64,000 bases of DNA, taken from sequence record PQ850623.1; one strand, given 5' to 3'. Below are positions 61,605-62,438 of this stretch, piece after piece. The notes under the pieces are model-generated. The model was not told the origin of the DNA. It made no database searches and saw only the letters and a program-made list of their open reading frames with translations. The position numbers and the translations under genes were made by a program. The first letter of the stretch is position 1. Every line of letters starts with the position of its first letter. The DNA comes from Escherichia phage RudolfBernhard_Bas96.

Positions 61605-62438
61605 TTATTCTGCAACAGTAACAGCGATGGTTACATCGACAGTACCGTTGGTAACTACTACAGAAGTAGCATCACCAGCAGCCACTGGTTTAACTGTCAG
61701 TACGTTACCAGCAATAGTAGCTGTAGCACGACCTGAATCTGGAGCAGTCTTGATAGACAAAGTACCAGCAGATGAACCAACAGGCATAGCTGCAATGGTT
61801 ACATTCTTACCTTCAGCAGTATCAGCAGCAACAGACAGAGCCAGTGAAGCAGGGGTAGCTACCAGTGAGCTTGCTTTGTAGTAACCTACAGCCAGCAACG
61901 AGGTATCTTCTACCGTGGTTCCATTAGCATCAGTAACAATCACTTTATAAGTACCAGCAGAAGTAGCTGTTACGTTGTTAAGGGTCAATGTTGCAGTAGC
62001 AGCAGAAGGGTTAGTACTGGAACTAATATCAGCGAATGCTGCACCAGCAGTATCAGTTTTGAATTGCCATTTATAAGTAAATGGTGCTTTACCACCTGCT
62101 ACCTCAATATGCCAGTTAATATCTTCATCTTTAATGGCAGAGATTACACGAGGCAGTTTGGTAGCAATAGTCAGGCGTGGAGTAGCTTTCATGTCGATAG
62201 TGACCGACTGCATATCCACGATGTTGTCAGGCCAGAAGCCTTCTTCAGCAGGGTTTTTAGCAGAGCGTTTATACAGCAGGTCACGTACACCGTGAAAAAT
62301 AACTAAGCTATCAGGGTAAGTGGCATCCGGATGTACAAAAGTACCTACTTCCACAGAACCACCTGGAACACTACCACCCGAATCAAGCACGGTAGCAACG
62401 TTGGTAGTTTTATTAAACGCAATCTTTAAGGTTGGCAT
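61605..62438 (-). CDS. Ig-like-domain protein, probable capsid decoration protein (N4 gp17-like by position and composition)
   Basis: Thr/Ala/Val/Ser-rich beta-type sequence with Ig-like segments (...FTYKWQF...AGTYKVIVTDANG...); sits immediately downstream of the RNAP II subunit as gp17 does in N4; followed by a strong terminator. Confidence 0.45.
   Translation of the reverse strand: MPTLKIAFNKTTNVATVLDSGGSVPGGSVEVGTFVHPDATYPDSLVIFHGVRDLLYKRSAKNPAEEGFWPDNIVDMQSVTIDMKATPRLTIATKLPRVISAIKDEDINWHIEVAGGKAPFTYKWQFKTDTAGAAFADISSSTNPSAATATLTLNNVTATSAGTYKVIVTDANGTTVEDTSLLAVGYYKASSLVATPASLALSVAADTAEGKNVTIAAMPVGSSAGTLSIKTAPDSGRATATIAGNVLTVKPVAAGDATSVVVTNGTVDVTIAVTVAE

Follow-up and report, generated by a model that had tools for sequence, protein, structure and literature searches.

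The 277-aa protein encoded at positions 61605-62438 on the minus strand of the 64,000-nucleotide stretch of phage DNA analyzed here (the window) is almost certainly a capsid decoration ('cement') protein, orthologous to gp17 of phage N4, gp17 of G7C and gp28 of Moo19. Its gene is a single-gene cassette between two predicted intrinsic terminators, located on the early/middle strand of a genome with an N4-like layout. In the open reading frame (ORF) listing of the window the frame begins with ATG, and its stop codon occupies positions 61605-61607.

Identity and predicted fold of the decoration protein

A probable capsid decoration protein had been proposed for this ORF in an earlier note on the same DNA, which suggested a comparison with N4 gp17 and a structure prediction as checks. 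Both were carried out, and the proposal is borne out by full-length homology to N4 gp17 and Moo19 gp28, both modeled in cryo-EM maps of capsids (PMC11768535, PMC11654681), by synteny with G7C and by the predicted fold. A phmmer search against the PDB returned N4 gp17 as the best match ('32 kDa protein' chains of 9e99, 9lbz and 9ld7; E 1.7e-112) over the full length, the alignment with 9e99_J pairing residues 1-277 with residues 1-279. Moo19 gp28 (9d7z_J) was recovered in the PDB sequence search with E 1.5e-92, again over the full length, and the middle domain gave weak matches to Ig domains of other phage 'decoration proteins' (8zvi, 5lxk). PHROG 2973, 'Hoc-like head decoration', matched with E 4.5e-99 over profile positions 1-310 of 310. 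Per-domain alignment yields 63-68% identity to N4 gp17 in each of three domains, and identity to Moo19 gp28 is about 60%. The Gamaleyavirus orthologues of G7C, PhAPEC7 and PhAPEC5 are 79-91% identical, with PhAPEC5 at 91%, and the nearest protein in a large database is 95% identical. The syntenic G7C gp17 is annotated as 'capsid decorating protein', and PhAPEC7, E20 and G7C have it recorded as a capsid decorating or structural protein. Full-length homology, a three-domain fold, the gene position and a cognate major capsid protein (MCP) are thus all found for membership in the N4 gp17 type (PHROG 2973).

The AlphaFold2 model, computed with 26 homologues as input, has a mean pLDDT of 85 and consists of three beta-rich domains, all of them beta-sandwiches. 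When the model was compared to the PDB with Foldseek, the N4 capsid chain 9e99_K came first (E 1.9e-38, 283 columns); the other leading matches were 9lbz_q from the N4 unique vertex and 9d7z_J/K from the Moo19 capsid, followed by the Ig arrays of titin, Dscam and contactin. The N-terminal domain DI (aa 1-88; 62175-62438, minus strand) would be the capsid-anchoring beta domain and is modeled with a helix at aa 44-56 and a low-confidence loop at 67-72. It is the part common to all Schitoviridae homologues, the two-domain ones included: a tblastn comparison with the latter covers only aa 1-87, and the homologues of KP8 and QDWS595 have DI alone in common with the protein, their second domain aligning at 20-25% identity. 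DII (aa 89-186; 61881-62174, minus strand) is predicted as an Ig domain of the I-set/Ig_3-like kind with pLDDT of about 88-95 and a Pfam Ig_3 match at aa 101-169, and per-domain identities make it the most variable domain between genera. DIII (aa 187-277; 61608-61880, minus strand) is a predicted C-terminal Ig-like domain, Big_2-like by eye, with beta strands modeled at 191-276 (pLDDT 81-93).

None of the Pfam Ig models reached its gathering cut-off (Ig_3 with 25.2 bits against 30, I-set with 19.6 against 23.7), and these sub-threshold matches are restricted to the middle domain, aa 94-179. Despite these scores, the Ig similarity is clear at the level of the predicted fold. As a separate observation, many database homologues carry a precomputed PF13927 match. 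The description of the protein as made of 'Ig-like repeats' holds insofar as three Ig-like beta-sandwich domains are predicted. A BLASTP comparison of DII and DIII gave an E-value of only 1.9, so the domains are not sequence repeats, as has likewise been reported for N4 gp17 (PMC11768535). Among 118 close homologues the per-domain entropy amounts to 0.35, 0.48 and 0.48 bits for DI, DII and DIII; no domain is hypervariable, and strong diversifying selection is therefore not indicated.

Several relatives carry quite different names for this gene. The records of PBM-2/3, IME11, PGN829.1, KP8 and phiAxp-3 list it as 'fibritin (wac) protein', 'neck whiskers protein' or 'cgkA: kappa-carrageenase precursor', which would make the protein either an enzyme or a fibre of the neck-whisker or fibritin type. 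Neither the PDB sequence search nor Foldseek returned a fibritin or a glycoside hydrolase, the top matches being the capsid-bound gp17 and gp28 and then Ig arrays, and the all-beta-sandwich model contains neither a coiled coil nor a catalytic domain. The sequence and fold results effectively refute a fibre or enzyme identity, to which we assign practically no probability, and the labels look like transfers from Ig-domain matches.

The name 'Hoc-like' calls for a different judgement. T4 Hoc is, like gp17, a non-essential monomeric outer-capsid protein of several Ig-like domains. Hoc, however, uses a terminal capsid-binding domain to attach at the centres of hexamers and points away from the shell (PMC7602432), whereas gp17 is held at the quasi-3-folds by its N-terminal domain and lies flat. 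No Hoc chain appeared in the PDB sequence search at E <= 1 or among the best 50 Foldseek matches. T4 Hoc is an analogue and not a family member, and the PHROG/RefSeq label 'Hoc-like head decoration' reflects this analogy.

Genomic neighbourhood and flanking terminators

A megablast search with positions 61300-62800 matched 55 phage records, N4-like without exception, with PhAPEC7, E20 and F22 as the best (~94% nucleotide identity) and G7C at 90%; the phage is therefore a G7C-like Gamaleyavirus (Schitoviridae, Enquatrovirinae), while N4 itself belongs to Enquatrovirus. The strand arrangement of the window is the N4-like layout: large structural genes, among them a 3605-aa ORF for the virion RNA polymerase, occupy the plus strand between 1 and 32.5 kb, and genes for replication and transcription occupy the minus strand from ~32.8 kb to the window end. 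The MCP, which as the N4 gp56 homologue would provide the binding surface for the decoration protein, is encoded at 13730-14932 on the plus strand (PDB 9d7z_A, E 2e-247, and 9e99_A, E 2.4e-246, both full length). Another MCP candidate at 12493-13713 was rejected, as it has no PDB match.

As claimed earlier, the decoration gene lies on the early strand (the minus, early/middle strand) and outside the structural operon, the MCP gene being on the opposite strand and 47 kb away. Its placement 'next to RNAP II' needs a slight correction. The gene for the RNA polymerase II large subunit, the N4 gp16 homologue (62755-63972, minus strand; PHROG 2051 'RNA polymerase', E 5.7e-175; syntenic with G7C gp16), is on the same strand about 320 nt upstream, and it is near and not immediately adjacent because an ORF of 65 aa, belonging to the G7C gp16.1 family, intervenes (62513-62710, minus strand; PHROG 12530, E 2e-37; syntenic with G7C gp16.1; hydrophobic by eye). 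Nor is this location unusual: a position by the RNAP II genes is what the family normally shows, and it has been published before (PMC6950046). The order RNAP2 followed by the decoration gene is also present in N4, G7C, PhAPEC7, Bp4, Moo19, Ea9-2, Kuerle, KP8 and QDWS595, and the synteny was confirmed for Enquatrovirus, Gamaleyavirus, Moovirus, Kaypoctavirus, Johnsonvirus, Yonginvirus and Petruschkyvirus.

The bracketing of the gene by terminators was confirmed as well, with canonical intrinsic hairpins on both sides. Upstream, at the end of the 65-aa ORF and 56 nt short of the ATG of the decoration gene, lies a predicted terminator at 62485-62514 (minus strand; hairpin 62495-62514) with an 8-bp stem AGCCACCC/GGGTGGCT, a 4-nt loop, the tail TTCTTTTTT and a folding energy of -14.6 kcal/mol; the stem includes the final base of that ORF's stop codon. 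Downstream, 50 nt past the stop codon of the decoration gene, a second one at 61525-61554 (minus strand; hairpin 61532-61554) has a perfect 9-bp stem GACCTCCCT/AGGGAGGTC with 6 GC pairs, a 5-nt loop, a T7 tail and -15.9 kcal/mol. A third predicted intrinsic terminator follows RNAP2 at 62713-62748 (minus strand; hairpin 62723-62748; 11-bp stem, tail TTTATTTTTT, -18.2 kcal/mol), so that the scan of the minus strand finds three hairpin-plus-T-run sites within 1.25 kb. Terminator-like sites are altogether frequent in this part of the window, with 10 in 58-64 kb as compared to 3.8 +/- 1.9 in shuffled sequences. The downstream element had been called one of the strongest terminators. When the candidates of a scan of the whole window were folded, it ranked about 7th of 21 good ones by hairpin energy and hence is not the strongest, while its T tail (7/8) is tied with three others and exceeded by none of the 21.

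Comparison with relatives shows these hairpins to be conserved. The upstream stem is 100% paired across nine Gamaleyavirus relatives, with compensatory changes in three pairs, and nearly every lineage examined has a hairpin plus T-run on either side of the gene, Kuerle having none before it. The downstream equivalents in relatives were read by eye, with confirmation by the scan for N4 and an ambiguous case in Kuerle. G7C (gp17), PhAPEC7 (gp18) and PhAPEC5 ('capsid decorating protein'), which belong to the same genus, share the identical gene order and have both stem-loops or terminators annotated (as terminator or stem_loop in the GenBank records of PhAPEC7 and G7C); their orthologues show only point differences, apart from a 4-aa deletion at the DI-DII junction of G7C gp17. 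N4 gp17 has the same three-domain Ig-like architecture, and its gene likewise follows RNAP2 closely and is flanked by terminators. In contrast to the phage analyzed here, N4 has no gp16.1-like ORF between RNAP2 and gp17, and a single terminator therefore precedes the gene and its promoter-like box (see below). The homologous Moo19 gp28, likewise encoded after RNAP2, differs more: its DII is merely 48% identical and contains a 7-aa deletion, and a hairpin nearly identical to the RNAP2 terminator directly precedes the gene. Taken together, the flanking hairpins have the features of rho-independent (intrinsic) terminators and are predicted to act as such.

The 3' untranslated spacer contains in addition a small conserved hairpin, GGGTTATAAACCC (61576-61588, minus strand), which is kept in Gamaleyavirus, KP8 and L018 and absent from N4 and Moo19. 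An Rfam scan of 61400-62800 gave nothing below E 0.2, so no known RNA family explains either this hairpin or the conserved box described next.

A conserved box in the leader and expression of the gene

The decoration gene is preceded by a Shine-Dalgarno (SD) sequence, AAGAGGA (62446-62452, minus strand; 7 nt 5' of the ATG), whose GAGGA core is kept in nearly all relatives. Between this SD and the upstream terminator, within the 56-nt spacer, lies a conserved box of 23 nt, TCATAATGATTAGGCATATTTAC (62455-62477, minus strand). It follows the pattern TCATAAT-N3-TAGGCA-N1-2-TTTA and contains a -10-like CATAAT hexamer (62471-62476) and a TTTA motif. The part TCATAAT-N3-TAGGCA is identical in Gamaleyavirus 'type A', in KP8 and in N4, where it stands before the SD as well, while the flanking spacer has diverged. 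L018 retains CATAAT, and the Bp4-type phages have TATACT in its place. We infer from the sequence that the box is a candidate promoter or operator of the gp17 gene.

The box does not belong to a repeated promoter family. A search allowing up to 3 mismatches found one copy in the window, matches to its 13-mer core occurred at chance level, and a crude listing of intergenic regions from the late- and middle-gene parts gave no shared motif resembling it. Being unique in the window, it is not a general middle-promoter motif, and we rejected that reading. A scan of IMG/VR for TCATAATNNNTAGGCAT returned, among the matches listed, scattered single matches in many contigs that look like chance. We also rejected a conserved hairpin in the 5' leader RNA, as the TAGG...CCTA inverted repeats visible by eye in N4 and KP8 are not present in Gamaleyavirus.

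The gene could be expressed from a promoter in the 56-nt spacer, by read-through of the T7-like RNAP II, or by both. We put forward tentatively, as a reading that is rather unlikely to hold, that it forms a self-contained, insulated cassette within the RNAP II middle region with the box as its dedicated promoter. The box could then be a late promoter dependent on host sigma-70 and N4SSB, with CATAAT as a -10-like element and no -35. A promoter of this kind would allow late, bulk synthesis of a structural protein from the 'wrong' strand, and the flanking terminators would keep the host RNA polymerase out of the middle genes. The promoter scan of the spacer gave no sigma-70 match and no acceptable -35. 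N4 late promoters, however, are N4SSB-dependent and resemble sigma-70 promoters only remotely, and in LUZ7 the early/middle strand carries about a fifth of the late start sites (both PMC9163698); a dedicated late promoter is therefore plausible, if unproven.

The gene may instead have no promoter of its own and be made solely by terminator read-through on RNAP II middle transcripts, an account that we consider quite possible but still short of probable. Transcripts would then start upstream of the polymerase genes, and the box would be a 5'-UTR or translational element or have some other role. The absence of a sigma-70 consensus match from the spacer and the uniqueness of the box in the window are in line with this account, as is the description of N4 middle transcripts as overlapping (PMC4496689). 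A further argument for it comes from relatives that have no box, namely Moo19, L019/L020, Ea9-2 and QDWS595, in which the T-run of the terminator (in Moo19 the RNAP2 terminator) abuts the SD and leaves no room for a promoter. In lineages without the box, RNAP II read-through is the sole option, and Moo19, Ea9-2 and QDWS595 would depend on it. Where the box is present, the evidence is harder to reconcile with read-through alone: TCATAAT-N3-TAGGCA is invariant over three genera while the adjoining spacer bases vary, the TATACT of the Bp4-type phages preserves A2 and T6 of a -10 hexamer, and a gene downstream of two good terminators would be ill suited to supply a protein required at roughly 180 copies per virion.

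Capsid role, the exposed C-terminal domain and significance

The probable function of the protein follows from its homologues, and we transfer binding geometry and stabilizing role at about 65% identity to N4 gp17 and about 60% to Moo19 gp28. In the 2.45 Å cryo-EM structure of the T=9 N4 capsid, three gp17 monomers are present per asymmetric unit (PMC11768535). Their DI occupies all quasi-3-fold axes, with DII flat on the P-domain of the MCP; DIII is flexible and exposed to solvent, makes minimal contact with the capsid and has a function termed 'uncertain, non-structural'. The authors concluded that gp17 raises capsid integrity (PMC11768535). According to a review, infectivity is unaffected by N4 gp17 and its contribution concerns stability against DNase I and EDTA, with 'stability, host adhesion' given as its functions (PMC7602432). 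Moo19 gp28 is listed in the virion protein table obtained by mass spectrometry, and its residues 1-183 were modeled on the capsid by cryo-EM (PMC11654681). The shorter homologue KP8 gp26 was detected in virions with 84% mass spectrometry coverage (PMC6950046). Absence from virions and lack of an Ig fold, which the earlier note had named as speaking against its assignment, are hence contradicted for the homologues.

By homology, three monomers per asymmetric unit would attach to the outer surface of the mature T=9 capsid. DI would plug or cement every quasi-3-fold junction, DII as the middle Ig domain would rest flat on the P-domain of one MCP subunit, and DIII would stay solvent-exposed and flexible. 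The protein is probably dispensable for infectivity and would help the filled head to withstand stress. For DIII, the Moo19 description differs from that of N4: the Moo19 authors place the protein near the quasi-6-fold positions and consider a trimeric spike possible for the unmodeled C-terminus, that is, DIII (PMC11654681).

The exposure of DIII bears on the idea, put forward in the earlier note, that Ig-like decoration proteins can mediate adhesion to mucus or cell surfaces. The protein might primarily be an adhesin, analogous to T4 Hoc in the 'bacteriophage adherence to mucus' idea, and its exposed Ig-like domain or domains would then bind glycans of mucus or bacterial surfaces, with stabilization of the capsid being secondary. 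The minimal capsid contact and 'non-structural' function of N4 DIII (PMC11768535) would suit such a role, 'host adhesion' stands beside stability for gp17 in the review (PMC7602432), and G7C-like phages are intestinal isolates according to the host and source lines of their records. Between Enquatrovirinae and Erwinia phages, moreover, DIII is better conserved (64-67% identity to the Erwinia homologues) than the capsid-contacting domains (34-52%), which suggests a constraint other than capsid fit, and it is a possibility that the conserved, exposed DIII has a conserved ligand. Against an adhesin stands that DI and DII of N4 gp17 lie flat on the shell and do not project (PMC11768535), that the experimentally reported phenotype is stability (PMC7602432), that the homologues of KP8 and QDWS595 are entirely devoid of DIII, and that the PDB search at E <= 1 had returned no Hoc sequence. 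We therefore consider adhesion improbable as the primary role, though DIII may have it as a second function, and favour a stabilizing capsid decoration protein.

For close relatives, descriptions exist of the protein, its fold and its location in the virion as well as of the position of its gene by RNAP II and of the terminators on both sides, and the copy of this phage is simply a new allele of a known gene. Two minor points may be undescribed, namely the promoter-like box and the finding that DIII exceeds the capsid-contacting domains in conservation when the Erwinia phages are compared. The proper name of the gene is 'capsid decoration protein (N4 gp17-like)', while 'fibritin', 'neck whiskers', 'kappa-carrageenase' and, strictly, also 'Hoc-like' are unsupported as labels. 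An exposed, non-essential, high-copy capsid protein is useful for phage display and engineering on G7C-like therapeutic coliphages. Beyond correct annotation the importance of the finding is small.

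Terminators and hairpins around the decoration gene

In the window, the conserved promoter-like box with the core TCATAAT-N3-TAGGCA (62455-62477, minus strand) lies between the upstream terminator (62495-62514, minus strand), which follows the 65-aa gp16.1-like ORF (62513-62710, minus strand), and the SD of the decoration gene (61605-62438, minus strand). In the Moo19-like phages (Moo19 locus L004, positions 1950-2000, and the related loci L019 and L020), the ORF, its terminator and the box are all absent, and a hairpin that is near-identical to the window's terminator after the RNAP II large-subunit gene (GCCTCATACCTTCGGGTATGGGGC; 62713-62748, minus strand) abuts the decoration-gene SD. 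Since all three elements are missing jointly, the segment, judged from sequence comparison, acts like a module that was inserted in some genera or deleted in others.

The stem of the upstream terminator is a near-perfect palindrome and was reported on the plus strand as well. Because the tail of this plus-strand version, AGTTGTTGAT, lacks a T-run, the terminator is probably unidirectional. Two small hairpins are found on the minus strand at the other end of the gene. One, AAGGGTATCCCTT (61594-61606), overlaps the stop codon; the other, GGGTTATAAACCC (61576-61588), lies between the stop codon and the downstream terminator (61532-61554, minus strand). N4 and Moo19 lack this second hairpin, but it is kept in Gamaleyavirus, in KP8 and in the metagenomic locus L018.

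In the region 61500-61531, only about 25 nt separate the downstream terminator from the next ATG, that of the gp17.1 homologue (61311-61499). Hence, the small minus-strand genes at 61311-61499, 61129-61314 and 60802-61128 lack the space for a separate promoter, and their expression must rely either on read-through of this terminator, which looks strong, or on transcription initiated upstream of the terminator.

tRNA-like matches in an ORF-poor stretch

The early/middle cluster ends in a long ORF-poor stretch (~34.4-36.0 kb), within which tRNA- and tmRNA-like matches to Rfam are located on the minus strand. These comprise an 85-nt tRNA at 34329-34413 (54.4 bits versus a gathering score of 29), which was not reported by an ARAGORN run on the window, a tRNA-like match below threshold at 34916-34991 and weak tmRNA-like fragments at 35487-35695. 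For KP8, six tRNA genes have been reported in the corresponding position (PMC6950046).

Homologues and the C-terminal domain of the decoration protein

Several database homologues, including P0004 and P0007, comprise 292 aa and are called 15 aa longer, presumably owing to an upstream alternative start call. An 87%-identical copy (P0069) is recorded on a 2.76-Mb contig of an assembly assigned to Enterococcus faecium, a placement that looks like contamination or misassembly. The homologues of KP8 and QDWS595 lack the C-terminal domain DIII (aa 187-277; 61608-61880, minus strand) and instead possess DI and one Big_2-like domain. In N4, DIII is exposed to the solvent with minimal capsid contact. 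When compared to the Erwinia phages Ea9-2 and Kuerle, DIII is nevertheless the most conserved domain (64-67% identity, versus 41-52% for DI and 34% for DII), which, at the sequence level, suggests that a constraint other than capsid fit acts on this exposed domain.
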